Numbered from the stretch's first letter, positions 9,631-42,693 are shown. The stretch: DNA of 64,000 nt from Acidimicrobiia bacterium (GCA_022819505.1 JAJEHD010000017.1:1516-65515); one strand, 5' to 3'. Notes: generated from the letters alone by a model not told the origin. Numbers and translations are program-made.

Positions 9631-9701
9631 TTTGGGCGATCCCAGAGTTATCCACAGGTGAGCCTGGATCAGAAATGTACTCTTACCTTGGATTTTATCT
9701 G

Positions 9702-24654: not shown

Positions 24655-24743
24655 CCCATGTCTCCCGCGCCGCTTGCAATGAGACCGACACGGGAGGCGG
24701 CCGGCTAGCCGCCCGTGAGGCTAGCGGTGCACAGGCAAGATGT

Positions 24744-25463
24744 TCAGAACAGGGCGGCGGAGAGGCGCTTGCGCCAGGCGGAGGTGCGAGGGTCGTCGGG
24801 GCCGAGCACCTCCAGCAGGTCAACGAAGCGCTGGCGGGCCTCCTCGTCCGACTTCACCGTAGCCAGCAGCCCGGCCAGTTCGGCCTCGATGTCCTGGGCA
24901 CCGTCCCCAGAAGCGACATCGGAGTCCAGTACCCGGGCCAGGGCCATCAGGCGCCGTGTCTCGGGCGTGTCGGGGACCCGCTCCAGCAGGGTTACCGCCT
25001 CCACGCTGCGACCGTCGTCGATCAGCAGCGACGCCAGCGCGGCCACCGCGTCGGGGTTGTCCGACTCGATCTCGAGCGCGGCCCGCAGCGACGCCTCGTC
25101 GCCCGCCGCGATCAGCCTCTCCACCTCGGTCATCTCCGGCGTCGGCACGAACCGCTGCACGAACTCGCGCACGGTGGCCTCGCCCTGGGCGCCCAGGAAG
25201 CCGTCGGCGACCTGGCCGTCGACCATGGCGTAGACCGCGGGGATCGACTGCACCCGGAAGGCTTGGGCGACGCCGGGGTTCGCCTCGATGTCGACCTTGG
25301 CCAGCTCGATGGCGCCGTTGGTCTCGGCGATGACCTTCTCCAGGATGGGAGTGAGCTGCCGGCAGGGCTCGCACCACGAAGCCCACAGGTCCACGATCAC
25401 GGGGACGGTCCGAGACCGGTCCACCACCTGGGCCTGGAATGTCGCGTCGGTAACGTCGGCCAT
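24744..25463 (-). CDS. Thioredoxin-domain plus TPR-like co-chaperone (YbbN/CnoX-like)
   Basis: Start at MADVTDATF (ATG 25463). WASWCEPC thioredoxin motif, then a helical-repeat C-terminus. Confidence 0.75.
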   Translation of the reverse strand: MADVTDATFQAQVVDRSRTVPVIVDLWASWCEPCRQLTPILEKVIAETNGAIELAKVDIEANPGVAQAFRVQSIPAVYAMVDGQVADGFLGAQGEATVREFVQRFVPTPEMTEVERLIAAGDEASLRAALEIESDNPDAVAALASLLIDDGRSVEAVTLLERVPDTPETRRLMALARVLDSDVASGDGAQDIEAELAGLLATVKSDEEARQRFVDLLEVLGPDDPRTSAWRKRLSAALF

Positions 25464-25582
25464 CGGCACCGCAACGTAGCGGCGCCGGGCCTCGATCACC
25501 CCACCCGCCGCCCGAACGCCGGCAGGGCCGGGCATCATGTAGCACCCGCACGGCGCAGTCGGCATAGTCCAAGGAGAACCGC

Positions 25583-26611
25583 ATGAAGATCGACGCCTGG
25601 ATCGGACTGCCCGAGGCGTCCAGCAGCAGCGAGCTGGAGAGCATCGGCGACCGGGCCCGGCGAATGGAACAGGACGGCTACAGCGGGCTGCTGTCGGCCG
25701 AGACCAGCCACGACCCGTTCCTGCCCCTGGCGCTGGCCGCCCAGAAGACCGAGCGCATCGAGTTGATGACCGCAATCGCGGTGGGCTTCGCCCGCAACCC
25801 GATGGTGCTGGCCCACGTCGCCTGGGACCTGCAGGCCCTGTCAAGGGGCAGGTTCCTGCTGGGACTGGGCAGCCAGATCCAGGCCCACATCACCAAGCGC
25901 TTCTCGATGCCCTGGTCTCGGCCCGCGGCCCGCATGGAGGAGATGATCCACGCCATCCGGGCCATCTGGGACGCCTGGCAGACCGGGGAGCGCCTCAACT
26001 TCCGGGGCGACTTCTACCGCCACACCCTGATGACGCCCATGTTCAGCCCGGGACCCATCGACGTGCCGCCCCCGCAGATCCTGATCTCGGCGGTGGGGCC
26101 GCTGATGACCAGGGTGGCGGGCCGGGCCGCCGACGGGCTCGTCTGCCATGCCTTCCAGACCGCCGAATACCTGCGGGCGGTGACCCTGCCGAACGTGGAC
26201 GCCGGCCTGGCCGAGGCCGGACGGGACCGTTCCGAGTTCCAGATCTCGATGCCGGTGTTCGTGGTGTCGGGGTTCCGCGAGGACGAGGTCGCGACCAAGG
26301 CCGCCCGGACCCGCGAGCAGATCGCCTTCTACGGCTCGACACCGGCCTACCGGGCCGTACTGGAGCACCACGGCTGGGGGGACGCCCAGACCGAGCTCAA
26401 CCGGCTGTCGAAGCGTGGCATGTGGAAGGAGATGGGCGACGTGATCGACGACGAGATGCTGGACGCCTTCGCCATCGTGGCCGAGCCCCACGACGTGCCG
26501 GCCCGCATCGCCGAGCGCTTCGGCGGCTCGCTCGACCGGCTCCAGTTCTACGCCGGGGTCAGCGACGCCGACCGCTGGGAGCCGATCCTCGAGGAGATCA
26601 AGGCGGCCTGA
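25583..26611 (+). CDS. Luciferase-like (LLM-class) F420-dependent oxidoreductase
   Basis: 342 aa with LLM-family blocks (GRFLLGLGSQIQAHITKRFSMPW, FYGSTPAYRAVLE). Confidence 0.7.
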   Translation: MKIDAWIGLPEASSSSELESIGDRARRMEQDGYSGLLSAETSHDPFLPLALAAQKTERIELMTAIAVGFARNPMVLAHVAWDLQALSRGRFLLGLGSQIQAHITKRFSMPWSRPAARMEEMIHAIRAIWDAWQTGERLNFRGDFYRHTLMTPMFSPGPIDVPPPQILISAVGPLMTRVAGRAADGLVCHAFQTAEYLRAVTLPNVDAGLAEAGRDRSEFQISMPVFVVSGFREDEVATKAARTREQIAFYGSTPAYRAVLEHHGWGDAQTELNRLSKRGMWKEMGDVIDDEMLDAFAIVAEPHDVPARIAERFGGSLDRLQFYAGVSDADRWEPILEEIKAA

Positions 26612-26664
26612 GGTCCCACCGGTGCCGTTGGCCGGTACCCAGCCGGTAGCCTGTCGGGACCCTC

Positions 26665-26737
26665 GGGGCTATAGCTCAGTTGGTAGAGCGCTTCCATGGC
26701 ATGGAAGAGGTCAGGGGTTCAATTCCCCTTAGCTCCA
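26665..26737 (+). tRNA. tRNA-Ala (anticodon GGC)
   Basis: Hand-folded 73-nt cloverleaf: acceptor GGGGCTA/TAGCTCC with the G3:U70 pair, anticodon stem CTTCC/GGAAG with loop ATGGCAT, T arm AGGGG-TTCAATT-CCCCT. CCA is not encoded. Confidence 0.9.
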
Positions 26738-26905
26738 CCCCTCAAATCACATAAGCAGAGGTCAGAGGCTATAAATGGCGTAGTCACCGGCTCTGTATGT
26801 TGCTTTTGTTGTCACTATCGGGCCGCGAAGAGGCGGGCGGGAGCGCGTGCTGTCAGTCTCGGAACCAGGGCTGGGGCGGCTACGGCCCAGGCAGCGAGTG
26901 GTGGC

Positions 26906-27787
26906 TTACAGGAACAGGCCTGGGTCGCCGCGTCCGGCCTGAGGGTCCTGTCGGGTGCGTTGTTGTTGGATGATGTGTTGTTGGCGCAGCCGGTGCAGTT
27001 CGCCCGGTTCGAAGCAGTTGCTCCAGCGGTCGCGCTCTTCGGTGACGTAGCGGTCGACGCGCTCGAAGATCTCGTCGAAGTCGGCTTGTAGGGGGAGTTG
27101 GCCTTGTTGTTGGAGGTCGCGCCAGGCTCTGGCAATGCGGTCGCGGCGTCCGAGGTAGGTGCTGCGGATATCGGCGGGATGGTTGCGATGGCCGTACTCG
27201 CGGGCGGGGTCGTTGTAGCTGTCGGCGTACATGTCCCACGCCTTGGCGAAGTCCACTTCTGGTGATCGGGCGAGCTGGTCGAGGTCATAGATGTCGCGTG
27301 GCGCGCTTCTGCGGGACAGGCAGCGCAACTTGTCGGCGGTGACCGCGGTGGCGGTGTATCCCAGAATGGGCGCCGCGTCGGGACGTGTGCCCCAACGCGC
27401 GTTGATGGGCCACAGCTGGGTGGGAACCGATGAGGGCTCGGTCAGCAGGGTGGCTTCGGCGCGGATCGGTGCCGGTGTCGCCTCGGCGACGATGTTGACG
27501 TTCACCGCGCCGGCGGTTTGGGTTGTGAGTGGGGTACCGACGCTGGCTGCGGCTCGCGTCGCGGCGGCATCGACTAGCGCCCGGAACTGTTGGGGTGAAC
27601 CGGCCCAGTCGAAGTCGAGATCCTCGGACCAGCGGTAGTCCTCGAACACGCAGACCCGCAACAGGGTCCCACCCTTGAACACCAACCGGTCGTCGCCGGC
27701 CTCTGCGAGCGCCGCGACGACATGATGCAAGATCGCGTCGCGGCGGCTGTGGGCGTCGAAGCGCTGGATGCTCACAGCCGAGTTCAA
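26906..27787 (-). CDS. AbiEii/AbiGii nucleotidyltransferase toxin (type IV TA), copy 1
   Basis: FKGGTLLRVCVFEDYRWSEDLDFDW signature. Its start overlaps the stop of the upstream AbiEi-like gene. Confidence 0.8.
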   Translation of the reverse strand: MNSAVSIQRFDAHSRRDAILHHVVAALAEAGDDRLVFKGGTLLRVCVFEDYRWSEDLDFDWAGSPQQFRALVDAAATRAAASVGTPLTTQTAGAVNVNIVAEATPAPIRAEATLLTEPSSVPTQLWPINARWGTRPDAAPILGYTATAVTADKLRCLSRRSAPRDIYDLDQLARSPEVDFAKAWDMYADSYNDPAREYGHRNHPADIRSTYLGRRDRIARAWRDLQQQGQLPLQADFDEIFERVDRYVTEERDRWSNCFEPGELHRLRQQHIIQQQRTRQDPQAGRGDPGLFL

Positions 27788-28554
27788 TACAGCAGGTGCT
27801 CGGCAAGCTCAGCGGGTGTGGTGTGCCACCAGACCCGCCGACGGCGATCCAACATCACCGCGGTGTCCTGGGGCTCCCGGGGGTCAAGTCCCAGCCACCG
27901 CTCCCCTGACCCGGCCCGCTCACACAACGCTGCGTGGGCGCGGTCAACCGCCACCAACGGCCGCGCGTACGCCGGTATCGGACCTTCACTCGCCGCGACC
28001 GCGGCCAGAGCTTCCGCCACCGACGCGACCCGTCGCAGCCCCGCGCGCCAACCAAGCTGCGCCGCCACCGCGGCCAACTCCTCAGGATCAAACAACTGCG
28101 GCGACTTCGACAGCGCCTGCGCAATGATCTCATCGGCACCAACAACCCACCACGCGTGCTGAGCGCACTCCAACAACGCTCGCGCCGGCGTCGACATCCA
28201 CGTGTCGGCACCAACCTCCACAGCAGCCACCGACAGCGTCGCCGAACCCTCAGCCACATGACGCCACCCACCGCGGCGGGCCTGCCCATACCACGCTCCC
28301 GGCGCGCTAACCGTCACACCAGCCATCAACGCCATCCCCCCCAAAGACAACGCGCTGCGATGCGAGATACGCCTAGGCACACGCCCATACACCTCCCTCA
28401 GCCGCCGCTCAAGAGACTCAGACAGAACCGAACCGCCGACCCTGGCCAAAGCAGGCAACCCTGGAGCTCCCCCAAACCCCGAACCAGAACACACCATCAC
28501 ATCAGACACACCACACCCCCCTTCTGCCGCTACACGCCCCAACCCTACCCGCAA
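27784..28554 (-). CDS. AbiEi-like antitoxin, copy 1 (appears to lack the N-terminal wHTH)
   Basis: Shares TWMSTPARALLECAQH and QLGWRAGLRRVASVAEAL with copy 2 (31318-32169). TTG start. 256 aa. Confidence 0.6.
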   Translation of the reverse strand: MRVGLGRVAAEGGCGVSDVMVCSGSGFGGAPGLPALARVGGSVLSESLERRLREVYGRVPRRISHRSALSLGGMALMAGVTVSAPGAWYGQARRGGWRHVAEGSATLSVAAVEVGADTWMSTPARALLECAQHAWWVVGADEIIAQALSKSPQLFDPEELAAVAAQLGWRAGLRRVASVAEALAAVAASEGPIPAYARPLVAVDRAHAALCERAGSGERWLGLDPREPQDTAVMLDRRRRVWWHTTPAELAEHLLY

Positions 28555-28826
28555 GCCACAGATACCTCATCGCCTCGGCGCGCCACAAGCAGCCAATAGC
28601 CGTTGATCGCTCACACCAAGGCTGCCGACAGAAGCGACACGACATGCTGGCAGGCCTTCAGAACCTCACCACGAAACAAACCCACAACGGCCGCCTGTGG
28701 ACCAACCAAGTGGTCGTCATCTAAGTGCCGTTTGCAAACCGCGGTGGCAACGGGCCTATCATCAAAGCGGCCTGACGGCTCCGGTTAGTAGGCTCCGGCT
28801 GAACAAGACCGTACGCCCCAGGTGAC

Positions 28827-28859
28827 GGGACCCCGGACCGCACGGGGTCCCTTTCTTTT
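28827..28859 (+). terminator. Intrinsic terminator with no annotated upstream gene
   Basis: GGGACCCCG-GACCGCA-CGGGGTCCC followed by TTTCTTTT. Confidence 0.65.
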
Positions 28860-29005
28860 GTGCTGCCTACCGCTGTCTATGAGGTGGCGACGGTCCTGAC
28901 ATGTCTCTCGGTGTGGACGTCCGGACCTGTGCGCGCAGCAAACAAGAGCGGGAGCACCTGCCGCCTCGGCCGGCCAGGGGCCGACTGGACGCACGTCGGA
29001 CCTAC

Positions 29006-29011
29006 TAGGGT
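29006..29011 (+). promoter_or_regulatory. Candidate -10 element (TAGGGT) for a leaderless transcript starting at GTG 29019
   Basis: Fits TANNNT and lies 7 nt upstream of the GTG. No SD is present. Confidence 0.3.
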
Positions 29012-29018
29012 CGTATCA

Positions 29019-29468
29019 GTGAATGACGTGAACTTTCCCCCACAGGCGCCTGGAGGTGGCGAGCGGCGGGTGGGGCCGCTGCTGGCACGGCGGTATGTGG
29101 TGGTGGGCGAGCTGCCCGCGTTGATGGCGATCCCCGGGCGCGGCGCCGGCTACTTGCCGGTGGTGCAGTTCATCAAGGACTGGAACAATCAGCCCGAGTC
29201 AAGAGAGCTCATGCTCGCTGGTGGTCTTCGCGCAGGCACCGACCCAACGGCTGCGGTGAAGGTGGCGGCGGTGGTCCATGCTTTGTGCCAGCGCGACGCC
29301 CACCCGTTGCCGGAGTGGGTGCCTGCGGCGCGCTCGCCGGTTGATATGACGTTGGTGCCCGATGTGGACTTGGAGTCTTCCTATGGGCAGCGGCTGCGCC
29401 GTGACGCCCCTGGGGTGTGCCATTACCACGGGGTCTACTTCTCGGTTGTGGACCTCCGCTCGACGTGA
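29019..29468 (+). CDS. Hypothetical protein, putative antitoxin partner of the downstream nucleotidyltransferase
   Basis: Its stop overlaps the downstream GTG (GTGA at 29465-29468). No family recognised. The start is uncertain because the ORF is open from 28860. Confidence 0.4.
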   Translation: MNDVNFPPQAPGGGERRVGPLLARRYVVVGELPALMAIPGRGAGYLPVVQFIKDWNNQPESRELMLAGGLRAGTDPTAAVKVAAVVHALCQRDAHPLPEWVPAARSPVDMTLVPDVDLESSYGQRLRRDAPGVCHYHGVYFSVVDLRST

Positions 29469-30139
29469 CCGACTTCGGGTCGCCTATCCCGCCCGATCCG
29501 CTGCTGGGCGCGGCGGACATCCGGCGCATGTTCGACAAGCTGTCGTCGCATCTGAACGACGCTGGCTCCACGGGTCACCACCTGATGATCGCCGGCGGTG
29601 CGGCGTTGGCGCTGATGTGGGAGAACCGGCTCACCCACGACATCGACGTTCCCGAGCATCGCTTCCGCGCCCCGACCGACACCGACGCTGAGCGGCTCAC
29701 CACCGCGGTGGACTTCATCTCGATGCGGTTCCCCGCCGAGCTGGCCCGCGCCGCCCGTATGGTCGCCGACGCCGAGGGCCTACCACGCAACTGGCTCAAC
29801 GGCGCCGTTGCGATCTTCACCCCCGCCGGCGACCTCCACCCCCAGATCCTGCACCAAAGCGACTGCCTCACAGTCGAGGCACCCTCCCCCACGGTGCTGT
29901 TGGCCATGAAGCTGCACGCGGCGCGCCCGTTGGACCTCCAAGACGCCGCCCGGCTGACCCGAGACACCGCGATCACAGACCCCGACCAGCTGCTCGGGCT
30001 GGTCGCGGACGCGTACGGCGCCGACGTCGCCACCGCAGAAACCGCCGACTTCGCCCACCGCGCCCTGGAGCTCGCCCTGGACCAGAACCACGGCAGAAGC
30101 CGGCGGCTGCCGGGCCACGGATTCGGCGTCGGACTCTGA
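29465..30139 (+). CDS. Minimal nucleotidyltransferase-fold protein (DUF6036/AbiEii-related), putative toxin
   Basis: LMIAGGAALALMWENRLTHDIDV (hG[GS]...DxD NTase core) and TVLLAMKLHAARPLDLQDAARL. Confidence 0.55.
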   Translation: MTDFGSPIPPDPLLGAADIRRMFDKLSSHLNDAGSTGHHLMIAGGAALALMWENRLTHDIDVPEHRFRAPTDTDAERLTTAVDFISMRFPAELARAARMVADAEGLPRNWLNGAVAIFTPAGDLHPQILHQSDCLTVEAPSPTVLLAMKLHAARPLDLQDAARLTRDTAITDPDQLLGLVADAYGADVATAETADFAHRALELALDQNHGRSRRLPGHGFGVGL

Positions 30140-30148
30140 CCACGCTAC

Positions 30149-30168
30149 GGGACCGTTACCGCGGTCCT
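30149..30168 (+). terminator. Weak hairpin after the NTase gene
   Basis: GGGACCG-TTACCG-CGGTCCT, 10 nt after the stop. Only TT follows. Confidence 0.3.
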
Positions 30169-30607
30169 TGAGAGGCTGTCGCCGTCGGCCAACCCGGGAG
30201 TCACCCGCATCCTGCTTGAGGCCGGTCCCAAAGAGAGTACAGACTACTATAAGGTGCGGCATCGGTTGGTACTCGCTTACACGCACAGAGTGGCACCTAT
30301 CGCAGGTGGGAGCGCATCACCGACGGCTTCCCGGTGTGACGTCGCGGCCGCGTCATCACGTCGAGCTTTCGCACAACTCCACAGCGGTGCCCCGGCGCGA
30401 TCCGCGAACCCGCCCTGACCCGATGAGCCACCAACCCCGCCCCAACCGCCAGGCCCGGCGCACCGGCAATCCCGGCCGACACAACACGGCCCGCCCCCGA
30501 GCCGAACTCGAACTGACCAAGTACCCAGAACCACAGGTCCCGTTCCCGAGACGGACCGAAGGACCACACATCGAAACAGACCTCGTTTCAACAACAAGGA
30601 GGAAGCA

Positions 30608-30811
30608 ATGTCTCTAGACACCGGCGACGAGATGCCCGCAGAGGTGCTGCGGCCCCGCGAGGCAGCCCGATACGTGGGCATGAGCCGACCCACGATTGAT
30701 CGCTGGCGCAAAGCCGGCAAGTTCCCCAAGGCGCTACAACTCGGCGCTCAGGCCATCGGCTGGCGCCGCTCCGACCTTGATGACTGGCTCAACAGCAGGC
30801 CATCGGTGTGA
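30608..30811 (+). CDS. AlpA/excisionase-type HTH protein
   Basis: LRPREAARYVGMSRPTIDRWRKAGKFPKALQLGAQAIGWRRSDLDDWL. SD AAGGAGGAAG. Confidence 0.8.
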   Translation: MSLDTGDEMPAEVLRPREAARYVGMSRPTIDRWRKAGKFPKALQLGAQAIGWRRSDLDDWLNSRPSV

Positions 30812-30911
30812 TGACCGACCGTGCCGTCTGCCCGTGCCCGCCGCCGGATAGGCCAGGGTTGGGCCGCCAGGTGTCGCAGCGCGATTGACGGCGACGGTGC
30901 GGGGAGCTGAG

Positions 30912-31133
30912 ATGTCATCGCGGGTCTCTGCTGAGTCAATGTTGCGAGTGCCAGAGGTGCTTGACCTCGTCGGCGTCAGTCGCCGAACGTTGTGTCGATG
31001 GCGCGCAGATGGCACGTTCCCCCAGGCGCTGAGGCTGGGCGCGAACTCCATCGGCTGGCCCCGTCACGTCGTCGATGAGTGGCTCGCCAACCGGCCCCTC
31101 GCTTGCTCTGACGCCCCTGCATCACCTGCCTGA
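30912..31133 (+). CDS. AlpA/excisionase-type HTH protein
   Basis: LRVPEVLDLVGVSRRTLCRWRADGTFPQALRLGANSIGWPRHVVDEWL. ATG 30912 has GGGGAG upstream. Confidence 0.75.
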   Translation: MSSRVSAESMLRVPEVLDLVGVSRRTLCRWRADGTFPQALRLGANSIGWPRHVVDEWLANRPLACSDAPASPA

Positions 31134-31282
31134 GAGCACTCTGGCCCACGCATCGACCAAGCCCCTGTGGGAACGTCCGCGACGATTCGGGGGGGATTGC
31201 GTGACGGCGAATGCGAGCGCAGCTTGTGGCTATCGGGCAGCGGTGGGCTGCGGTGGCAGCGGGGGATCGAGCGACCGTGATG

Positions 31283-31319
31283 TATGTTTCTCATATCGGC
31301 TCTGGTATATTTCTCGTAT
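31283..31319 (+). promoter_or_regulatory. AT-rich promoter/operator candidate of AbiE copy 2
   Basis: Direct 14-mers TATGTTTCTCATAT (31283-31296) and TATATTTCTCGTAT (31306-31319) match at 12/14. TATATT lies 6 nt before the ATG, suggesting a leaderless transcript. Confidence 0.4.
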
Positions 31320-32169
31320 GGGCTCTGTCGAGGTATTGGAGCGTCTGGCGCCGGTGTTTTTGACGCGGGAGTTCGAGCGGGCGGCTGGGGTGCGGCCGTC
31401 TTCGGCGTCGCGGGCGCTGGGCGAGTTGGCAGCTGTGGGCCGGGTGGAGAAGATCCGCCGGGGGACGTGGCGCAACTTCGTTGTCTCATGGCCGTCCGCG
31501 GCCGAGCTGTTGGTCGGCGCGGGCTCTGTTTCTCATCACTGGACCGCGCAGTGGGAAGCGGAGCTGGAGGCGGCCTACGGCAGCGCTGTTCGACGGATCT
31601 CAGGTCTGACCGCTTTGGGGATGGCGGGGGTGGCGTTGATCTGCCGGCCAGAGGTCAGCGTGGCCGGCGGCGTCGCGTTCGACACCGGCGCGTTCGGGTT
31701 CGTGTCTTGGCGCGAGCGCCCGGAGTCGCTGCTGGTGGCAGCGGTGCAGCTGACCGAGCACACATGGGTGTCGACTCCGGGGCGGGCGGTGTTGGAATGC
31801 GCCCACTGGCCGCACCGCTCGCACCGCTGGGAGGAGTATCTGGGCCGCATGCTGGCCTACCGCTTCGAGGTGTGCCCGCCAAGCGAGGTCGCCGCCGCAG
31901 CCGACGCCTTGGGATGGCGCGCCGGCCTGCGGCGGATCTCGTCGTTGGCGCAAGGCCTGGCCGAGTCCCCCACAGGGCAAAGTCTGGGGTTCGACATCGA
32001 CCGCCGGTGGGCCGAACTGGGCTCCGCGGCGGTTCGCGGCGACGACTGGATACACCTCACGCCGCTGCGCCGCACCGCCAGCCCGCCCCGCGTCGCGCAC
32101 CGAGACACGGCCCGCAAAGTCAACTGGGCGGCTGCCCCCGACGCTGTCGCGGCTGTGGTCTCGACATGA
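31318..32169 (+). CDS. AbiEi antitoxin (type IV TA), copy 2
   Basis: N-terminal wHTH pattern (ALGELAAVGRVEKIRRGTWRNF) and TWVSTPGRAVLECAHW. The stop overlaps the AbiEii start (ATGA). Confidence 0.7.
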   Translation: MGSVEVLERLAPVFLTREFERAAGVRPSSASRALGELAAVGRVEKIRRGTWRNFVVSWPSAAELLVGAGSVSHHWTAQWEAELEAAYGSAVRRISGLTALGMAGVALICRPEVSVAGGVAFDTGAFGFVSWRERPESLLVAAVQLTEHTWVSTPGRAVLECAHWPHRSHRWEEYLGRMLAYRFEVCPPSEVAAAADALGWRAGLRRISSLAQGLAESPTGQSLGFDIDRRWAELGSAAVRGDDWIHLTPLRRTASPPRVAHRDTARKVNWAAAPDAVAAVVST

Positions 32170-32978
32170 GCGGGCCGACCAGCCGGCACAGCAGATGGGA
32201 GCCGGTCGACCTGGTCCAGCACCAGATAGTCTCCGCGGTCGCGGCGCGCCAACAAGGCGTCCCGCGGGTGATGTTCAAGGGCGGGACTCTGCTTCGGGTC
32301 TGCTACCGGCGCGACTGGCGGTTCTCAGAAGACCTGGATTTCGACTGGATCCACGCCGACGACACCAAGCCAGCCATACAGGACTTCTTTGACCGAGTCC
32401 TCAACACAGCGTCGAGGACTTACCGGACCGCGTTCGACACGAAATGGGGCGCCAACAAACTCAACATCTACTGGGAGCTGCCCAACGCCACGACCGGCGT
32501 CATCTACACCGACGTGAAACCCCGCCAGCACCCCGGTGCCGGGCCCACCGCCGCGCACTGGACCATCCTGGACAGATACCCACAAGTCGACACCACCAAC
32601 CCCATCTTGGGATACTCGCCAGCTTCGATGCTGGCAGCAAAACTCGACTGCATCGCGAACCCCTACCGGCTCGCACCACGCGACTACTACGACCTGAACC
32701 GCCTGCTCCAAGACCCCTCGATAGACACCAACGCGGCCCTCGACGAGTTCACCGCACGCCACCAAGCCGCACACCCCGCCACAGCAGGCCGCGACTGGTT
32801 CGACATCCTGTTCGACAACGCATACCAACACGAAGCAGAACTCGCCGAAAGATGGACCGAGATCACCCGAACAGGCATGATCCAAGACCCACACCAGAAC
32901 TTCGCCGCCATACTCGACACCGTCACCGACGCCACACAACACGCCCTCGACGACTACACAGCCACAACCACAAACTGA
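32166..32978 (+). CDS. AbiEii/AbiGii nucleotidyltransferase toxin, copy 2
   Basis: FKGGTLLRVCYRRDWRFSEDLDFDW. This is the C-terminal part of the listed 564-aa ORF, whose N-terminal part is out-of-frame overlap with AbiEi. Confidence 0.8.
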   Translation: MSGPTSRHSRWEPVDLVQHQIVSAVAARQQGVPRVMFKGGTLLRVCYRRDWRFSEDLDFDWIHADDTKPAIQDFFDRVLNTASRTYRTAFDTKWGANKLNIYWELPNATTGVIYTDVKPRQHPGAGPTAAHWTILDRYPQVDTTNPILGYSPASMLAAKLDCIANPYRLAPRDYYDLNRLLQDPSIDTNAALDEFTARHQAAHPATAGRDWFDILFDNAYQHEAELAERWTEITRTGMIQDPHQNFAAILDTVTDATQHALDDYTATTTN

Positions 32979-32979
32979 A

Positions 32980-32997
32980 AACCGCCAGTCGGCGGTT
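32980..32997 (+). terminator. Hairpin just after the AbiEii copy 2 stop
   Basis: AACCGCC-AGTC-GGCGGTT with a weak T tract. Confidence 0.35.
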
Positions 32998-33150
32998 CAA
33001 TGTGCTCTATCTCGTATCCCAGGCTTGTGATCACCAACGGACACGCATTCGCGCCAACTGAAGCGTGCCAGCGATAGCCAGGCCGCGGATGTAGTCAGTC
33101 AGCGCCCTCACGGCGCTGACCCCTATCCCGGTTCGCATGGTGGTGGACGC

Positions 33151-34335
33151 TCAGTGCAGGTACCTGCACCAGTCCTCCATCAGTGGGCGGCGGCGTTCCA
33201 GCATGTCGGACCGGGCGTAGGCCCGTTCGGCGGAATCTCGCACGACGTGGCCGAGCGCCATCTCGGCGAGGTCTCGCGCAACGGCCGTGTCTGAGCACCA
33301 GGATCGGAAGCAGCTTCTGAATCCGTGGGCGGTGGCGTCGATGTCGTGGTCGCGCAGCAGCTTGTTGAAGGTGGAGTCTGACACTGCTCGACCGGTTGTC
33401 GTGCTGGGGAGCACGAGACCTTGGCCGTGGTTGAGGCTTCGGGCTTCGGCGAGGACCTCCAGCGCTCGGCTGCTCAACGGCACCCGGTGTGAGACGCCGG
33501 TCTTGGTCCGCGTGGCTGGGATCTCCCACACCCGGTTGTCGATGTCGAACTCTGACCAGTCGGCGAAGCGGACTTCGCCGGAGCGGGTCGCGGTCAGCGC
33601 GAGCAGCTCCAGCCCGAGCCGACACGCCGGGGTCGCGTTCGACTTCCTCACCCGGTCAAGGGCGTCGGCTACTTCGCTGTGGTGGAGGGCGCGGCGGTGC
33701 TCGACCTTGTGGCGGTGCTTGGGCATTGATGCCTTGGCCGCGGCGGTGGGGTCGCTGTCGCGCAGGTCGCGACCCATCGCCCACTGCATCGTGGTCGAGA
33801 TTCTGCGGACAGTGCGGCGGGCCAGTTCGGGGCGGTCCCACACCCGGTCGAGCACCGACACAACGTCGGCGGCGGCCACGTCGGCTACCGGCATCGGGCC
33901 GATGGTGGGGTCGATGTGGTTCTCTAGCAGCGCCCACCACTGGCGCTCGGTGTTGCTGGTGGCCTTCCAGTTCGGGCGGTGCAACAGGATCACCTCGCGC
34001 ATGGCGTCCGCGAAGGTGACTGCATGGCGACGGCGGGGATCGCGGCCTTCCTCTACGGCCTGCCGGTTCGACAAAGCCCGTTCACGGGCCAGCGCCAACG
34101 ACACGGCGGGGTAGGAGCCGAGGCCGAGGCTGACCGTCTTGCCGCCGATGCGGAGGCGCTGCGCCCAGGTCTTGGACCATCTGCCGTTGGCGGTGGTCTT
34201 GACCAGTAGGCTCAGCCCGTGGGAGCCGCGGCCGTCGCCGTAGCGTCCGGGCCGGTTGATCGTGCGCACGAAGGCGGCGGTCAGCACCTTCGGCCGAGAG
34301 GGACTTGAACTCGTGGATACCTTTTTCATTACCAC
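33151..34335 (-). CDS. int: Tyrosine recombinase/integrase (P4-like, DUF4102-type N-terminus), int1
   Basis: GRYGDGRGSHGLSLLV...LGSYPAVSLALARERA arm-binding domain. Catalytic blocks ATRSGEVR, HGFRSCFRSW, LGHVV...AYARSD. Confidence 0.9.
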   Translation of the reverse strand: MVMKKVSTSSSPSRPKVLTAAFVRTINRPGRYGDGRGSHGLSLLVKTTANGRWSKTWAQRLRIGGKTVSLGLGSYPAVSLALARERALSNRQAVEEGRDPRRRHAVTFADAMREVILLHRPNWKATSNTERQWWALLENHIDPTIGPMPVADVAAADVVSVLDRVWDRPELARRTVRRISTTMQWAMGRDLRDSDPTAAAKASMPKHRHKVEHRRALHHSEVADALDRVRKSNATPACRLGLELLALTATRSGEVRFADWSEFDIDNRVWEIPATRTKTGVSHRVPLSSRALEVLAEARSLNHGQGLVLPSTTTGRAVSDSTFNKLLRDHDIDATAHGFRSCFRSWCSDTAVARDLAEMALGHVVRDSAERAYARSDMLERRRPLMEDWCRYLH

Positions 34336-34442
34336 TTCACGTCTGACAAAGGACGCTATATGGGAGCCCGGCGGGGTACAACCAGTCGCCCGGAATAGTG
34401 CTCTTAACAGGGCATTTTGACGTTGGATTATGGCATTACACG

Positions 34443-34499
34443 GCGTCCGGCGGCGCTACTTCCCACAGGTAGGGTTCGATGCTCACCCCGGACGCACCA
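34443..34499 (+). other. tRNA-like relic ending in ACCA (possible vestigial attachment site of int1)
   Basis: GCGTCCG (34443-34449) pairs perfectly with CGGACGC (34489-34495), which is followed by ACCA. The internal GGTTCGAT is T-loop-like. No D arm and no canonical anticodon arm. Confidence 0.4.
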
Positions 34500-35445
34500 G
34501 CGCTACAACGATCCGGTCGAGGGGTCTTGCCCCCCTTCCGAAGGCGGCGCTGTAATTTCGCTTGGCGGGTCGCACCTGGCCGCGTCGGCCAGCTCCCCCA
34601 CCCCACAACCCAACGCCTCACGAGCTGCGCGCAACAGAACCCCGGCGAGGTCTGCCGCTCGCTGAGAACGCAGAAGTCACGAAATACACCGTTGTCGCTG
34701 TAGCGTTCGCGAGCGTTCCTCAGCGTTCCTCGGGCCCTCGGACGGCTCCGGCGGCGGCGTGTCGGCCCGCCATTATTGGCGGACGCGCACCCTTTGTGAC
34801 CTCGGCGGGCTCTTTAGTGCAAGCGTGTGGTGGCCAGACTGACCCAGAAACGCCGTCGCGAACGGTCCCCACCAACAACGGAGCCCGAACGACCTCCGAC
34901 ACCACCGGACACAGCCCCAACACCGAACTCCGAGCCCCGCCGCTCAACAGCCAGGAACGCAACCCGAATGACGAGGAATACAACCCTCAACGACCCACCG
35001 TTCCCCTTGCAGAGCACCCCACCGGGCAGGGCGGGTCGACCGCCGCCCTGGGCCTGGGCTGCCTTGCAGCGGTCGAACCGCCAAGGCTCTCTCGGGGAGT
35101 TCGTCGCTTGCAGCGGTCGACACCGTCCCGAGGCGGGATCACCCGACTCGGGCGGCCCCGCTGGGCCGTTCGACCTCGCCGGTCTTGACAAGACGAGCCG
35201 CCGAGACGACAGCGAACTGTGCATCACGCGCCCCGGCAGGCGCCACCACCGGCCTCTCCTACCCGATCCCTTCCCGCTGCCAACACCAAGTGTTGGGTCG
35301 CGTTCGAGCAGGTCAGCACAGGTGCGTTCGCGAGCGTTCGCGTCTCGTCTCTAGGTTGCGGGCATGGCTCAGCACTGCCTGACCCACACGACAGGCGGCT
35401 CACAGCTGGTATCAAGGCACCCAACGCTCCCACCGGAGGAAGTCC

Positions 35446-35643
35446 ATGCTCGCGACCTCACGACCCGAACACCAGATTCTGCGGGTCGCCGACCTCCAAG
35501 CCCAGCTAGGGCTGTCAAGAACAACCATCTGGCGCCTCCGCCGAGCGGGCGAGTTCCCCCAGCCCATCCGACTCAGCGCCAACGCCGTCGGCTGGCCCAC
35601 CCACCTCATCGACGAATGGCTCACAGCACGTCCCGAGGCATGA
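35446..35643 (+). CDS. AlpA/excisionase-type HTH protein
   Basis: LRVADLQAQLGLSRTTIWRLRRAGEFPQPIRLSANAVGWPTHLIDEWL. SD GGAGGAAG. Confidence 0.8.
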   Translation: MLATSRPEHQILRVADLQAQLGLSRTTIWRLRRAGEFPQPIRLSANAVGWPTHLIDEWLTARPEA

Positions 35644-35877
35644 CTACAAGCACAACCTCGCTCAAGGGCCCACCAACGGGCCTCGATCCGATAGCGAGAT
35701 CTACTCAATGTCGAGGGTCCTGCCCTCGTCACGCAGAACCACCGCCCCATTGAAGTCGCACACGGTGGTCAAGGACCATCTCAGGCACTCCGAGCCCGAT
35801 GAGCGCAGGATCCCCGAGTGCTACCGCCGCCGTCGCCCGCTGCAACTACTCTCGACGCTGTGTCAAGCCCCGCCACC

Positions 35878-36078
35878 ATGACGGCCATCACCGCCCCCGC
35901 GGCCTCTGCGGCAGAGGCCCTGGAGCCCTGCGAGAGAGCGATCCTGTCGGTGCTGCGCTTGTGGCCACGCGGCGCCGCCGAAGCCGCGGTCGCTGACCGC
36001 GCCGGCCTCGGCACCACCACTGCAGCGCCTTCTTGGCGGAGTCGTCGTCCTCAGGGAATCGGCAGAGTTGATGCCTGA
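35878..36078 (+). CDS. Small winged-helix-like protein (hypothetical)
   Basis: 66 aa. EPCERAILSVLRLWPRGAAEAAVADRAGLGTTTAA resembles the small wHTH proteins of actinobacterial mobile elements. No SD. It ends 30 nt before the 718-aa ORF. Confidence 0.3.
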   Translation: MTAITAPAASAAEALEPCERAILSVLRLWPRGAAEAAVADRAGLGTTTAAPSWRSRRPQGIGRVDA

Positions 36079-36108
36079 ACAGGGCCGTTGGGCCCGAGCT
36101 AGTAGTCG

Positions 36109-38265
36109 ATGTCAATTGCACGCACCGATGTAAGAGTGGGGCTTGGCCCGGCCCGCGGCGCCTACCTCGTTAGGGCCGGCGATCGACGGGGATTTGTCGC
36201 GGCGATTCAGACGGCGTCGACACGCTGGGGAGGCGTGACGGAGCCCATCATTCCTGTAAGGGCCTCTGGACGAATCGACGACATGTGGGTGCAAGTCGTC
36301 AAATGCAGTGGCGTCCACGGGCTGATCAATGTGAGCGTTGCGCCCAGCGCAGCAGCGACAGCGCAGCGGCGACTTGGCCTACGACTCATCGACGTGAGAG
36401 ATCTTGACCTCGATGCGCTACTTGGACGCACCCTGTATCCGACCGCTGTGTCCCCAAACGACGAGGAGTGGAAGCGCAGGGCTGTGCTGCTTGCCGACGA
36501 ACACGCCCCGCTGTGGCTGAAGGTTGCGCTAGGCACGTTCCCGCCAGGACATCAGCAGTTCCGGCATCCCCTACCGGAAGCCATGATCTTAACGACGGAC
36601 ACTCAGGGCGATCTCGACCGCGCCATAGGTGCGCAGGTTGACCACAATACTTGGCTCGATTTTGGGGCGAACTCACTGGGAGCCTTCTTAACCGGCGGCC
36701 AGCTGGGCTTCACGCCGGTAATGGTGTGGATGACTCGTAGAGACAATCTGCGTGATTGTGTCTTCTTCTGGAATCTGCGTGCGCTCCGGTCTCTGAGGTT
36801 CTTTGTACTGACACCGATGTTGCTGTTGCCGCAGGGTCTACAGGTCGATTGGCAACGACTAGGGCGTGTGATTGCTCGGAACATTCCGTCGTGGAGCGAT
36901 CATGAGCCGAGTGTCCTAATGGGTTCACTCGCTGTCGAGGAGAACATTCTTAAGGAAGTCGCTGGCCTGCTCGATTTGGTTCCGACATCAAGTACGCCTG
37001 TTCCTGGTCAGATTTCAGGTCCGCGAGGCGTACCGGGCCCTCCTTATTCGTTCTGGATAGGACGGACGCCGCAAGACTACTTTCGGTTCACACGCTTCTA
37101 TGGGGTCGCCGCTGGAACGGTCGCACAGATGCACGGGCAGGACGGCCGCATCGAGTTTCCGTCACCTGTCGGTTTTCGTGCACCAGGACGATTGATCGCT
37201 CGTGTCGAAACGCAGCTTCTTGACGGGTTGCCGCGGCGACCTGTCATTGCGTCGATGGTCCACTCGGGTGCTCAGTGGCATCAGGACAGCTTGCAGGTCG
37301 ATGTGAACACACAGGAGCGTTATCGCATCCCCATTCAGGTACCGACCCTCGAACAAGCTGCTCGAGCACTGCTGGAGAACGCCTGTGATCGAGCAGAGGT
37401 CTCAGACAAGGGCAGATTAGGTCGGAGGCTCCTTGAGATGGGCGGCCATCGTCTACTCCTAGACGAACAGGTTCGCAATACAGCTGCGGAGCTGGTGACT
37501 CGCCGATCGAATCAGTTGCTCAAGGAGCTGTCACGCCTGCGCGATGAAGACCGACCTGATGAGGATCTAGTGCAACTGGCTCAGCGATGGGGAGGCACGC
37601 AGCAGCGTCGCTATCGCTCAGCCTCAGACCTTCGTAGCGTAATCGGCAAGACGGCGGGCGCAAGCGCGGAAAAGTTATGCACAGCAGGCTGGGCCGAGCG
37701 CGGTCTCGGTATCGACTGCGCACATTGTGGAATCCGCAGTTTCGTAGCCCTAGAGCAAGCGTTCGCTGCGCCGACGTGTCCGGCGTGTGGTGCTAGCCAG
37801 CCATACAAGGTCAACGCCAGCACTGGGGTGCCTGAGATGCACTATCGCTTGGGCGCCCTGATCGACCGTGCCGCAGATCAGGGCGTCGTGTCGCACCTGC
37901 TCGCTATTGCCGTACTCGAGGAAGCCTATGAGCGCTCCTTCCTGATTCCGGGCGCCAGTATCTGGTTCTCAGACGGTACTGAGCGCGAGGTCGATCTATA
38001 CGGTGTGTGCGACAGCATGGTCGTAGCTGGCGAGGCTAAAACGAGCCCTAGGTCCTTCAGCGACGATGACACCGCAAGGCAGGTTGAACTGTCAGCAACG
38101 CTCGGGGCGGATACCCACCTGATGGCTGCAACCGGCAAGATTGCTGGGGCAGCCATCAATGCCGCGAAGCTCAGCGCCATGTGTCACGGCATCGGCCTGA
38201 TCGTGATCGAAGGAGAGAGCATGCGCACACTCGCGCTGCCGCAACAGCAGGACAAAGACGCCTAA
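36109..38265 (+). CDS. Large uncharacterised island protein with C-terminal zinc ribbon and PD-(D/E)xK-like motif
   Basis: 718 aa with no family recognised. C537-x2-C540-x16-C557-x2-C560, then EVD629LYGVCDSMVVAGE642AK644. Clean single long ORF, less GC-rich than its neighbours. Confidence 0.6.
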   Translation: MSIARTDVRVGLGPARGAYLVRAGDRRGFVAAIQTASTRWGGVTEPIIPVRASGRIDDMWVQVVKCSGVHGLINVSVAPSAAATAQRRLGLRLIDVRDLDLDALLGRTLYPTAVSPNDEEWKRRAVLLADEHAPLWLKVALGTFPPGHQQFRHPLPEAMILTTDTQGDLDRAIGAQVDHNTWLDFGANSLGAFLTGGQLGFTPVMVWMTRRDNLRDCVFFWNLRALRSLRFFVLTPMLLLPQGLQVDWQRLGRVIARNIPSWSDHEPSVLMGSLAVEENILKEVAGLLDLVPTSSTPVPGQISGPRGVPGPPYSFWIGRTPQDYFRFTRFYGVAAGTVAQMHGQDGRIEFPSPVGFRAPGRLIARVETQLLDGLPRRPVIASMVHSGAQWHQDSLQVDVNTQERYRIPIQVPTLEQAARALLENACDRAEVSDKGRLGRRLLEMGGHRLLLDEQVRNTAAELVTRRSNQLLKELSRLRDEDRPDEDLVQLAQRWGGTQQRRYRSASDLRSVIGKTAGASAEKLCTAGWAERGLGIDCAHCGIRSFVALEQAFAAPTCPACGASQPYKVNASTGVPEMHYRLGALIDRAADQGVVSHLLAIAVLEEAYERSFLIPGASIWFSDGTEREVDLYGVCDSMVVAGEAKTSPRSFSDDDTARQVELSATLGADTHLMAATGKIAGAAINAAKLSAMCHGIGLIVIEGESMRTLALPQQQDKDA

Positions 38266-38385
38266 CTGGTGGCCCGTGCTTCGCGTAGTCGGTGGTGCGC
38301 CCCGTGTTCCGCGCGGCCGGGTTGTTTGATCTCCGACGGTGTGTTGGCGTGGCGCAACTCGTAGCCGAGGAGAGCGAGCATGTAG

Positions 38386-39558
38386 CTAGGTGATGTACTG
38401 GCCCCAGGCGTTCATGACCTCGCGGCGTTGCTCTAGCAGGTCGGAGCGCCGGTAGGCGGCTTCTACGGTGTTCTTGACGACGTGGGCTAGGCACGACTCG
38501 GCCAGCTCGCGGCTGACGGCCGACTCGGCGCACCAGTCGCGGAATGATGAGCGGAGGCCGTGTGGGGTCATGCCCAGGTCGAGGTCGTGGCAGAGTTTGG
38601 AGAGGGCTTCGGGAGTGATCTGCCGGCGCCGTGCCGAGGGAAAGACCAATGAGTCGGGAGCGCCGTCGCTGTATGGGCGTGCCTCGTCGAGCACGGTGAG
38701 CGCCTCGGGGCTTAGCGGGACCCGGAAGTCGCGGCCGACCTTGGTGCGCTGGCCTGGGATCGTCCAGGTGTCGGCCTCGATCTCGTTCCAGCGCATGCCG
38801 CGGACCTCTCCGGAGCGGGTCGCGGTCAACGCCAGCATCCACATGGCGAGCTTCGTGGTTGGGTAGGCGGCTGAGGCATCGATGGCCGCTAGCGCGGCAG
38901 GCACCTGGTCCGGCGGCAGTGCGGCGATGTGGCGGCGGGCGACGCCGTTGCGGGGCAGCGCCGCCAGCAACGCCTCGCCGGCGGGATCGTCGACACGGTG
39001 TCCGGCGGCCATCGCCCATCGGAACGCCAAAGAGAGCCGCTGGCGAACCTTCTTGGCAGTGTCGTGACGGTCGGTCCACAAAGGCCCGATGACTCGCAGC
39101 ACGTCTGCGGTATCGATCTGGTCAACTGGGCGGTGAATTAGGTTGTCGGCGTGGTTGCGGACGCTGTTGCGCCAGATCTCAGCCGAGCGGCCGCCGTTCT
39201 TCCACGACCCCGAGCGTGCCTCGATCACGGCTTCAAGCGCGTCGGCGAGGGTCGGGGTCGGGTTCTCGGTGATGCGCGGGTCGATGCCTTGGTCGATTTT
39301 GCGGCGGTTGTCCAGCGCCCGCTCGCGTGCGGTGGCCAGTCCCACCACCGGGAACGATCCCAGCCCCAAGTTGGTGGCGCGGCCGTTGATGCGGAGTCGC
39401 TGAACCCAGATCTTCGACAGCCGGCCGTTGGTTGTGCGCCGCACCCGCAGGGTGAGTCCGTAGCCGCCGCGGCCGTCGCCGTAGACACCGGGCCGGTTGA
39501 CCTGCCGCACGAAGGTCGCGGACAGTGGCAGACCGGCCCGCGAGTTCGATTCTCTCAC
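38386..39558 (-). CDS. int: Tyrosine recombinase/integrase, int2 (paralogue of int1)
   Basis: GVYGDGRGGYGLTLRV...LGSFPVVGLATARERA. Catalytic blocks ATRSGEVR, HGLRSSFRDW, LAHVV...AYRRSD. It lies about 145 nt from the att repeat. Confidence 0.9.
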   Translation of the reverse strand: MRESNSRAGLPLSATFVRQVNRPGVYGDGRGGYGLTLRVRRTTNGRLSKIWVQRLRINGRATNLGLGSFPVVGLATARERALDNRRKIDQGIDPRITENPTPTLADALEAVIEARSGSWKNGGRSAEIWRNSVRNHADNLIHRPVDQIDTADVLRVIGPLWTDRHDTAKKVRQRLSLAFRWAMAAGHRVDDPAGEALLAALPRNGVARRHIAALPPDQVPAALAAIDASAAYPTTKLAMWMLALTATRSGEVRGMRWNEIEADTWTIPGQRTKVGRDFRVPLSPEALTVLDEARPYSDGAPDSLVFPSARRRQITPEALSKLCHDLDLGMTPHGLRSSFRDWCAESAVSRELAESCLAHVVKNTVEAAYRRSDLLEQRREVMNAWGQYIT

Positions 39559-39564
39559 TTCTGG

Positions 39565-39692
39565 GTGTCACTTTCTCTGTCGCGAATGTCACTTGATGGG
39601 ATGCTACGCCCTGCAACCGGCTGAAACGGGGATACGCCCTCTCACCTGCGAATATAGGTGACACAAAGCGACAAACTGCAACCCGCTGAAAC
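39565..39692. promoter_or_regulatory. Candidate arm-type recombinase binding sites between int2 and the att repeat
   Basis: 17-nt direct repeat CTGCAACC(G/C)GCTGAAAC at 39611-39627 and 39676-39692. TGTCACT at 39566-39572 and 39587-39593. Inverted GTGACAC at 39658-39664. Confidence 0.45.
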
Positions 39693-39700
39693 CCCGAATA

Positions 39701-39718
39701 AATTCTCCTTAGCTCCAC
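39701..39718 (+). repeat. att repeat: copy of the tRNA-Ala 3' end (right island boundary)
   Basis: aattcTccttagctccac matches the tRNA at 26719-26736 (aattcCccttagctccac) with one mismatch. Confidence 0.8.
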
Positions 39719-39756
39719 TCGGAGGAACTCGCCAGGGACTATCAGGAGTTCCCGGC

Positions 39757-40530
39757 TCAGCCGGCCGTGAGCTGGCGAGTGAAGATCCGCCCCAGCCCAT
39801 CGATTCCATCGGCAATCCCGGCCAAGCGCAGCATGTGCCAGAACAGGGCCATGTTGCTCGACAGGACCGGCACACCGACTTCTGATTCCAGATCCGCGAC
39901 GGAGGCCAGGAGCCGGAGGCTGGTGCACGACACGAACACCGCGTCGCAGGGCGCGCTGCGGGCGATCGTCCGCACGCCATCGGCGACCGACTGCGGCGAG
40001 ATGCGCGCCACGGTGAAATCGTTCGACTCAAGGAAGGACCCCAGCGCGGTCACGGAGAGGCCTTCGTCAGCGAAACTCCGAGCGATCGGTTCGGTGACCT
40101 CAGCGGTGTAGGGGGTGACAACCGCGACCCGGCAGGCGTCGAGCGCACGGAGCGCGGCGACGGCGGCCGTGATCGGGTTGGTGCAGGCCACCCCAGGGTG
40201 CTCGCTCTGGATGGCGGCGGTCACGCGGTCGGCGCTGATCAGTGTCGCCGCCGAGGTGCAGCCAAAGCCGACCACGTCAAAATCGAACTCTCTGGGCAAC
40301 AGGGCGGCCGCCGCGGGAAGCCGCTGCTCCATATCGGTCAGGGTCTCTGACGTGACCTCCATCGAATTGGGGATACGTGAGTGGTAGAAGTCCACATCGG
40401 GGAGGTTCAGCATGCGGGCCTCGGCCTCGATCGTCTGATCGCTCTCAAGCACGATCAGACCGATGCGGGCTCGGGAACCAAAGCCATCGTCGGTGGCGAA
40501 CGGCAACTGCACCAGGTCGGGAACGGTCAT
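39757..40530 (-). CDS. Asp/Glu/hydantoin-racemase-superfamily protein (EutA / maleate-isomerase-like)
   Basis: Start at MTVPDLVQL (ATG 40530, a TGATG overlap with the upstream stop). Blocks RIGLIVLESDQT, GFGCTSA, VFVSCTSLR contain the paired catalytic Cys contexts. Confidence 0.6.
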   Translation of the reverse strand: MTVPDLVQLPFATDDGFGSRARIGLIVLESDQTIEAEARMLNLPDVDFYHSRIPNSMEVTSETLTDMEQRLPAAAALLPREFDFDVVGFGCTSAATLISADRVTAAIQSEHPGVACTNPITAAVAALRALDACRVAVVTPYTAEVTEPIARSFADEGLSVTALGSFLESNDFTVARISPQSVADGVRTIARSAPCDAVFVSCTSLRLLASVADLESEVGVPVLSSNMALFWHMLRLAGIADGIDGLGRIFTRQLTAG

Positions 40531-41681: not shown

Positions 41682-41682
41682 C

Positions 41683-42603: not shown

Positions 42604-42693
42604 GACGTGAACAGTACCCGGCAGCCGGATCCCGCCTCAGACGCGATAACTAGGCTCGCCGGGGTGCCGTGTGAAGCTGCCCGATGTCGCCTC

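Follow-up and report, generated by a model that had tools for sequence, protein, structure and literature searches.

The window analysed here, a 64,000-nt stretch of Acidimicrobiia DNA (GCA_022819505.1 JAJEHD010000017.1:1516-65515; one strand, positions counted from its first letter), contains a tRNA-Ala(GGC) gene followed by an island of about 13 kb, which carries two tyrosine integrase genes (int1 and int2), three genes of the AlpA family and predicted toxin-antitoxin (TA) and defence genes, and which is closed by a copy of the tRNA 3' end. The tRNA gene is the sole Rfam match between positions 26000 and 49000. The features that bound the island, together with the integrase that matches its outer ends, are the following:

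26665-26739 (+): tRNA-Ala(GGC) gene, the integration target (ARAGORN; Rfam tRNA, 69.9 bits), its 3' end presumably rebuilt by the island
26721-26738 (+): attL core AATTCCCCTTAGCTCCAC, the 18 nt that precede the terminal C of the tRNA (exact pattern match)
26739-26820 (+): left (P') arm, holding the arm-type site TTGTCACT at 26809-26816
35446-35643 (+): AlpA3 (Pfam, E 9e-13), the likely excisionase partner of Int2
38386-39558 (-): Int2, the integrase matching the outer ends (Pfam Arm-DNA-bind_3, Phage_int_M, Phage_integrase)
39559-39700 (+): right (P) arm, with TGTCACTT twice (39566, 39587) and inverted GGTGACA at 39658
39701-39718 (+): attR core AATTCTCCTTAGCTCCAC, opening with AATTCTCC, 17/18 against the tRNA end
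39719-39756 (+): ancestral tRNA-downstream flank, apparently pushed away by the insertion

The locus was compared with about 35 related Acidimicrobiia species represented by metagenome-assembled genomes, which were found by a scan with the luciferase-like monooxygenase (LLM) encoded at 25583-26611; the LLM proteins of these relatives are 81-98% identical and the genomes are labelled Acidimicrobiaceae or Ca. Aldehydirespirator (loci used for comparison bear L numbers below). The latter genus is named in a comparative-genomics study of sponge-associated Actinobacteriota. The initial annotation of this DNA had placed an 18-nt copy of the tRNA-Ala 3' end at 39701-39718, and this copy is indeed present and the only further one in the window, but it agrees with the tRNA end at 17 of 18 positions and is not exact. 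Even when up to 3 mismatches are allowed, the 64 kb contain no other copy of the core, and two matches of the core were obtained in 0 of 100 shuffles. The T at 39706, which causes the mismatch, is also found in L086 and L096, within AATTCT, indicating that it is borne by the element and that the crossover lies within CCTTAGCTCCAC.

Both ends of the island are delimited by relatives. The DNA homology shared with L096, whose Int2-like integrase is 91% identical, runs from 38382 and ends exactly at 39718 by BLAST; from 39725 onwards the window is homologous to the Amdase-M24-PhyH cassette of L005. The 38 nt past attR, GAACTCGCCAGG...AGGAGTTCCC, have similar counterparts directly after tRNA-Ala in three loci that lack the island (L018, L009 and L003) and to the left of the Amdase gene of L005. 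At the other end, the 80 nt after the tRNA, CAAATCAYATAAG...TATGTTGCTTCTGTTGTCACT, are kept directly past tRNA-Ala in L002, L007, L022, L023, L026, L028 and L030; the left arm is conserved at this place in 7-8 other species, and TTGTCACT is retained in every locus reaching that far. The right arm contains a 17-nt direct repeat, CTGCAACCSGCTGAAAC, at 39611-39627 and 39676-39692, is about 90% identical in L096 (BLAST) and is closely similar in L086 (alignment). Three copies of the motif TGTCACT are found in the window (26810, 39566 and 39587): one lies near the tRNA as initially annotated, but there are two and not three near int2, where the third site is the inverted variant GGTGACA. Its window-wide count is not above chance, and these sites are credible because of their position and their conservation in relatives rather than their number. 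The earlier proposal that arm-type sites stand at both ends of one unit is borne out, with a single integrase system, that of Int2, and ends that are conserved in relatives. The G+C content is 0.58-0.69 in the island and 0.70-0.75 upstream.

In both Int1 and Int2 the Phage_integrase profile is covered in full and the catalytic R, K, HxxR and Y are kept, as read from the translations. Relatives of Int2 are 77-91% identical, and arm and core are shared in L087 and L096. L087, from the same genome as L023, is a 10.6-kb island with the same left end, an Int2-like integrase (77%) and a perfect 18-nt repeat, and its cargo differs (a DUF4062-TPR protein, an insertion sequence (IS) and an SLH protein). 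The tRNA-Ala core was not recognisable in L086 and L088, whose integrases are Int2-like (90%), and these two loci were therefore uninformative. The locus thus combines intact tyrosine recombinases, a distal repeat of the tRNA end and presence or absence among relatives, as tRNA-type islands do. Altogether, positions 26739-39718 probably represent one mosaic Int2-type integrative island that has entered tRNA-Ala(GGC) at its 3' end in a sponge-associated member of the Acidimicrobiia. It is a genuine island of a fairly ordinary kind (mobile, about 13 kb, with TA and defence cargo).

At four empty sites (L011, L013, L014 and L027), the tRNA is followed directly by DNA homologous to the window from 48563 onwards. 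These junctions show that the variable region extends from 26740 to about 48540 and that the island lies within a larger hypervariable stretch. Besides, in L012 (12187-13496) and L034 (923-2956) the same tRNA-Ala is directly followed by another integrase, 38-42% identical and encoded on the tRNA strand, and in L034 an AlpA gene follows this tRNA-adjacent integrase; tRNA-Ala is therefore used by at least two lineages of integrases, whose genes are placed in opposite ways.

These features are consistent with the following scheme of integration. Int2 would act as a tyrosine recombinase of the P4-like type, in which the N-terminal domain binds arm sites; it would bind the core CCTTAGCTCCAC and the TGTCACT-type sites of both arms and recombine the circular element with the tRNA gene. 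The element would supply a new tRNA 3' end (attL), the original end having been moved to 39701-39718 as attR. The excision of a 12,980-bp circle would be directed by a protein of the AlpA family, most likely AlpA3. The island would be mobilised, if at all, by Int2 and an AlpA partner. The sequence and the comparisons establish which genes are present, where the island ends, that its ends are conserved and which tRNA the relatives of Int1 use, and from these we infer the recombination activity, the part played by AlpA, the defence role of the cargo and the sequence of events.

A second integrase, with att-like surroundings of its own, is located inside the island:

33151-34335 (-): Int1, intact tyrosine integrase (Pfam Arm-DNA-bind_3, Phage_int_M, Phage_integrase)
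34329-34337 (+): Int1-type arm site TTACCACTT, the sole copy in the island, same motif as GTTACCACTT
34472-34498 (+): tRNA-Leu-type att core GGGTTCGATGCTCACCCCGGACGCACC, an orphan attR-like site for Int1, to which the attR cores of L089, L091 and L093 and the 3' end of tRNA-Leu(CAA) can be aligned

As initially annotated, Int1 and Int2 are paralogues, with the same three Pfam domains and 45% identity. The nearest relatives of Int1 (P0166 and P0161; 82-85%) are found in elements of about 10 kb at tRNA-Leu(CAA), in L091 and L093, with the gene order int, alpA, replication-like gene, TerL, HK97-type capsid gene and S78 protease; their attR core is the tRNA-Leu 3' end, GGGTTCGA...CTCTCCGGCACC, and GTTACCACTT arm sites are present in both arms. 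According to Pfam, the window island lacks the capsid, protease and terminase genes that L091, L092 and L093 carry, and a metagenome scan with Int1 returned two loci only. The Leu-type core upstream of int1 is a single copy in the window, TTACCACTT occurs once in the 64 kb, and neither an internal tRNA-Ala core nor a further arm copy or an integrase pseudogene is present in the island. The placement of Int1 relatives at tRNA-Leu, the lone Leu core and arm site and the lack of an internal Ala core identify the Int1 unit as a tRNA-Leu-type relic, which, judging from these sites, is not a second integrant at tRNA-Ala; since its partner site is absent nearby, the fragment would be unable to excise by itself. 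Int1, its arm site and the Leu core would represent a captured fragment of another element family normally residing at tRNA-Leu(CAA). The description of the island as repeated, equivalent modules of AlpA, cargo and integrase at tRNA-Ala is consequently not supported, the kin of Int1 being at tRNA-Leu(CAA) and no internal Ala att site being found.

Other candidate att sites were examined and discarded. The possibility that the Int1 site is a complete attP, which would make a dual-target island, was rejected because the P'-type TTACCACTT is absent past the core. When the 3' half of the tRNA and the region upstream of int1 were aligned locally to all spacers, the scores were no better than those of shuffled controls. 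A core-like match at 28830-28843 is not an att site and corresponds to the loop of a hairpin:

28827-28851 (+): G+C-rich hairpin followed by a T run (terminator-like), not an att remnant

Finally, AGCTCCCCCACCCCACAA at 34590 bears a weak likeness to the attL junction and is otherwise unsupported. The elements of about 10 kb at tRNA-Leu(CAA) (L091 9790-20076, L093 9765-20230, and L092) have no tail genes, and this tail-less TerL/capsid/protease layout resembles that of a capsid-forming phage satellite (cf-PICI-like).

Several other histories could produce two integrases behind one tRNA. Tandem accretion supposes that two or three tRNA-Ala-specific elements (an integrase-less, an Int1 and an Int2 unit) arrived in succession and that their inner att sites decayed; it would explain the common layout alpA (+), cargo (+), int (-) in which the two intact paralogous integrases and the three AlpA genes are arranged, and accretion does happen at such loci, as indicated by the island remnants that L096 and L091 keep beyond their attR sites. 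It is nevertheless unlikely here, as there is neither a third tRNA-Ala core with up to 3 mismatches nor extra arm sequence, the site upstream of int1 is of the Leu type, with Int1 relatives at tRNA-Leu(CAA), and low identities (45% for the integrases and 34-49% for the cargo, namely 42-49% among AlpA proteins and 34-37% between AbiE pairs) mark old paralogues and not recent duplicates. The intact Int1, with a P arm, one arm site and a core alongside, could also belong to a nested element that is still mobile, inserted at a secondary site of the Int2 island and able to excise like GI21 in CGI48, and composite islands whose inner element is native to another locus have a precedent (PMC8978831). 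We give this history very little credence, because the Leu-type core and TTACCACTT are each single in the 64 kb, hence without an attL partner, and because the sequence past the core is unlike the P' arms of L091 and L093.

The assembly itself was also considered. The window from 23151 to 39182 is 100% identical to ENA KELL22-1 scaffold_623, from the same sample, which stops inside int2, and this stop points to strain heterogeneity in the sample or to int2-like genes repeated there. The source sample is BioSample SAMN22237341, and the same int1 is found in run SRR16351692. In principle, the right end of the island, from the 5' end of int2 through attR to the Amdase side, could have been joined from another strain or locus with a 90%-identical integrase: Int2-like genes are abundant at that identity, with one cluster of 213 members, and the look-up returned no record of the exact Int2 protein. 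Such a chimera is hardly credible, however, given that the flank past attR is the expected tRNA-Ala downstream flank, that the genes beyond attR are syntenic with the LLM neighbourhood of relatives and that the int2 frame is continuous; even if two strains had been joined, the islands so connected would share both type and locus.

The reading of a single Int2-type island with a captured Int1 fragment has its own difficulties. The attR differs from attL at one position, and neither an excised circle nor an empty site of this exact island was observed. The join between the int2 5' end, attR and the flank comes from one assembly only, scaffold_623 ending at 39182 in the other. The functions of the cargo are predicted from family membership and gene neighbourhood. 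In addition, the empty site initially expected, with tRNA-Ala directly before the racemase-family (Amdase) gene, is found in no relative, and the Amdase-M24-PhyH cassette, which follows attR in the window, lies on the opposite side, between LLM and the tRNA, in five species (L004, L005, L007, L008 and L050). In L004, a 13-nt tRNA 3' remnant and flank are found upstream of this cassette. Indeed, tRNA-Ala and the 22 nt upstream of it stand on opposite sides of the cassette in sister species (window 39719-42630; L004 11275-11324 and 15452-15525; L005 11046-14054), and the remnant in L004 is on that side of the cassette on which the window carries the complete tRNA. This arrangement suggests a past duplication of the tRNA around the Amdase cassette followed by differential loss, tRNA copies on both sides being its simplest reading.

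Besides the integrases and AlpA3, the island contains the following features:

26906-27787 (-): AbiEii toxin of pair 1, a nucleotidyltransferase (Pfam PF08843, E 2e-24; PADLOC AbiEii, E 2e-26)
27784-28554 (-): AbiEi-like antitoxin of pair 1, with a 4-nt overlap with the toxin gene; 34-36% identical to AbiEi_2, no Pfam match
28860-29468 (+): partner open reading frame (ORF) upstream of the nucleotidyltransferase-like gene (start at 29070 according to gene callers); no family match in Pfam, PADLOC or NCBIfam
29417-30139 (+): nucleotidyltransferase-like protein, distant AbiEii relative (Pfam AbiEii at E 1e-4, scoring 22.7 bits where the cut-off is 22.5)
30608-30811 (+): AlpA1, of the HTH_17/AlpA excisionase or regulator family (Pfam PF05930, E 1.5e-12)
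30885-31133 (+): AlpA2, first gene of AlpA2-AbiEi_2-AbiEii_2 (Pfam, E 1e-10)
31318-32169 (+): AbiEi_2, putative antitoxin; weak AbiEi_4 match (E 3e-4, below threshold), 86% amino acid (aa) identity to the L091 copy
32166-32978 (+): AbiEii_2 toxin (Pfam, E 9e-24); 92% aa identity to L091, 4-nt overlap with AbiEi_2
34678-35018 (no strand): IS remnant resembling a miniature inverted-repeat transposable element, with both ends kept and the transposase gene gone; the ends match the flanks of a DDE_Tnp_1_4 gene in the L023/L087 genome (85% and 72%)
35818-36078 (+): truncated AbiEi, N-terminal part only; its DNA at 35827-36026 matches the 5' part of a 237-aa AbiEi-like gene in L096 with 89% identity
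36109-38265 (+): 718-aa protein of an unannotated family, candidate defence effector, with a zinc ribbon and a PD-(D/E)xK nuclease-like C-terminus

PADLOC, run on the window, found AbiEii as the sole system. Pfam recovers the three AlpA genes of the initial annotation, the second of which starts at 30885 and not at 30912, as well as the AbiE pair before int1. Two TA-like pairs had been proposed in the proximal segment: the first is an AbiE pair, in which 27784-28554 was assigned as AbiEi-like from its position upstream of AbiEii, but the second hangs on the borderline AbiEii match given above. Homologues of the partner ORF of this second pair (30-46%) adjoin homologues of the nucleotidyltransferase-like protein (NTase240; 30-32%) near Int2-like integrases in L023 and L026. 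The cargo would consist of two AbiE type IV TA/abortive-infection pairs, a third, nucleotidyltransferase-like pair and the 718-aa nuclease-like protein.

The AbiE genes appear to travel with AlpA. The DNA of AbiEi_2 and AbiEii_2 (31248-32966) is 91.4% identical to a cassette of L091 that lies just outside the tRNA-Leu attR of the satellite-like element, with an AlpA2-like gene before it; homologues of AlpA2 are found about 700 nt past tRNA-Ala in L007 (85%) and upstream of the AbiE cassette in L091 (65%). AlpA3 is 80% identical in aa to an AlpA that precedes an AbiE pair in L096, where the order is AlpA3-like gene, 237-aa AbiEi-like gene and AbiEii. The ORF at 35818-36078, previously called a winged helix-turn-helix gene, does exist, but it is a truncated AbiEi remnant, without a Pfam match and skipped by gene callers; its match to the 5' part of the L096 AbiEi indicates that the 718-aa gene replaced the rest of an AlpA3-AbiE cassette. 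The AlpA-AbiEi-AbiEii cassette recurs in the window (30885-32978), L091 (5955-7853) and L096 (5215-6936), in differing islands and at differing tRNA loci. From these comparisons, AlpA seems to be associated with AbiEi-AbiEii and not with an integrase, the AlpA gene may serve the AbiE operon instead of, or besides, excision, and the cargo appears to be built by cassette exchange. A full IS with a DDE_Tnp_1_4 transposase sits in the L087 island. The spacer between int1 and AlpA3 also holds a perfect 16-nt direct repeat, GCGTTCGCGAGCGTTC, at 34703-34718 and 35324-35339 (621 nt apart), with a third copy at 34713 that is 81% identical.

The most interesting cargo is the 718-aa protein. Its ORF, noted initially, is a real and conserved gene, with 38 homologues in a word-indexed search and 424 cluster representatives at E <= 1e-30 in a full profile search, and no model describes it in Pfam, NCBIfam or PADLOC. 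Pfam searches over 36 family members gave weak zinc-ribbon matches only, no sequence relatives were found in the PDB, the domain fusions of longer homologues were not informative and a viral fold library was equally uninformative. The AlphaFold model is confident, with a pLDDT of 89.5, and its best Foldseek matches in the PDB are Cdn1, VC1899 and Can2 (E 3e-4, probability 1.0), with an overall TM-score of just 0.22-0.36. C537, C540, C557 and C560 are invariant among homologues, and D629, E642 and K644 nearly so. The N-terminal 310 aa form three alpha/beta subdomains, whose top fold match, the triple CWB2-like SlpA (TM 0.40), is not confident, and no CARF structure was found with the N-terminal domain model. 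For this family of proteins of about 700 aa, the data point to a candidate architecture in which three N-terminal alpha/beta subdomains and a helical region are combined with a CxxC...CxxC zinc ribbon and a PD-(D/E)xK nuclease domain like that of Can2. Homologues adjoin BREX, AIPR, AbiTii and methyltransferase genes (L082, L083 and L085), and the L097 homologue is convergent to an integrase and an HTH_17 gene at the edge of an integrative element with Prim-Pol, DpdA and DNA methylase genes; the family fills the integrase-adjacent cargo slot in both the window and L097. That it constitutes a new single-gene anti-phage defence system is a tentative idea, which we regard as possible but would not presume.

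Elsewhere in the window, a conserved segment of about 160 nt (42631-42789), without an Rfam match, is found directly after the tRNA in L004 and L016 and at other places in L005, L009, L010 and L050. A low-GC stretch (5000-9776; 0.55-0.63) adjoins tRNA-Pro(GGG) (9701-9776, -) and contains a Fic/DOC gene (5477-5869), an IS-type HTH fragment (8881-9417) and several ORFs without a family; no integrase was found in this stretch.

Taken together, tRNA-Ala(GGC) and tRNA-Leu(CAA) emerge as integration hotspots for a P4-like integrase family in a little-studied lineage of sponge symbionts, whose islands appear to swap ready AlpA-AbiEi-AbiEii cassettes, and even integrase-att fragments, between both hotspots. 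For annotation, two integrases in a like layout need not be tandem copies, and the att core beside each of them discriminates. The unannotated, defence-island-linked 718-aa family is flagged as worth experiment.

The island is comparable to the P4-type integrase/AlpA tRNA islands (e.g. CP4-57 at ssrA and the P4-like defence hotspots) in its arm-binding integrase, tRNA 3'-end repeat, AlpA/HTH_17 genes, variable defence and TA cargo, GC below the flanks and presence or absence among relatives. In the E. coli examples the integrase lies next to the tRNA, as is also the case in L012 and L034, whereas here it is at the opposite end of the island from the intact tRNA and its 5' end points towards attR; the host is, moreover, an uncultured member of the Acidimicrobiia, and there are no replication, capsid-redirection or transfer genes. 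AbiE is reported as a type IV TA and abortive-infection system (Dy et al. 2014), and AbiEii (PF08843) after an overlapping AbiEi-like gene is seen twice in the island, although here AlpA repeatedly precedes the pair and AbiEi is too divergent for the Pfam cut-off. The Can2/Card1/Cdn1-type PD-(D/E)xK nucleases are the top fold matches of the 718-aa protein, in whose nuclease-like C-terminal domain D629, E642 and K644 are conserved; unlike them, it has no recognised CARF domain, an extra CxxC...CxxC zinc ribbon and no nearby CRISPR or cyclase genes.

Serial segments past one tRNA, some of them integrase-less, are likewise known from ICESt1-type accretion and from the asparagine tDNA islands of Klebsiella (PMC4891358). 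Accretion arrays keep at least three copies of the same att repeat, whereas here only the two outer copies are found; internal att copies, which would mark accretion or cis-mobilisable units, are lacking, and the integrases are not all of one att specificity. In Shewanella putrefaciens CN-32, CGI48 is likewise a tRNA-borne island holding a second integrase unit native elsewhere, GI21, and its TA genes plausibly stabilise the composite, as they may here (PMC8978831). GI21 has an att site of its own on either side and excises (PMC8978831), whereas in the present island one Leu-type core is left and the inner unit looks like a relic. With this difference, CGI48/GI21 is the closest documented analogue of the composite at tRNA-Ala(GGC).

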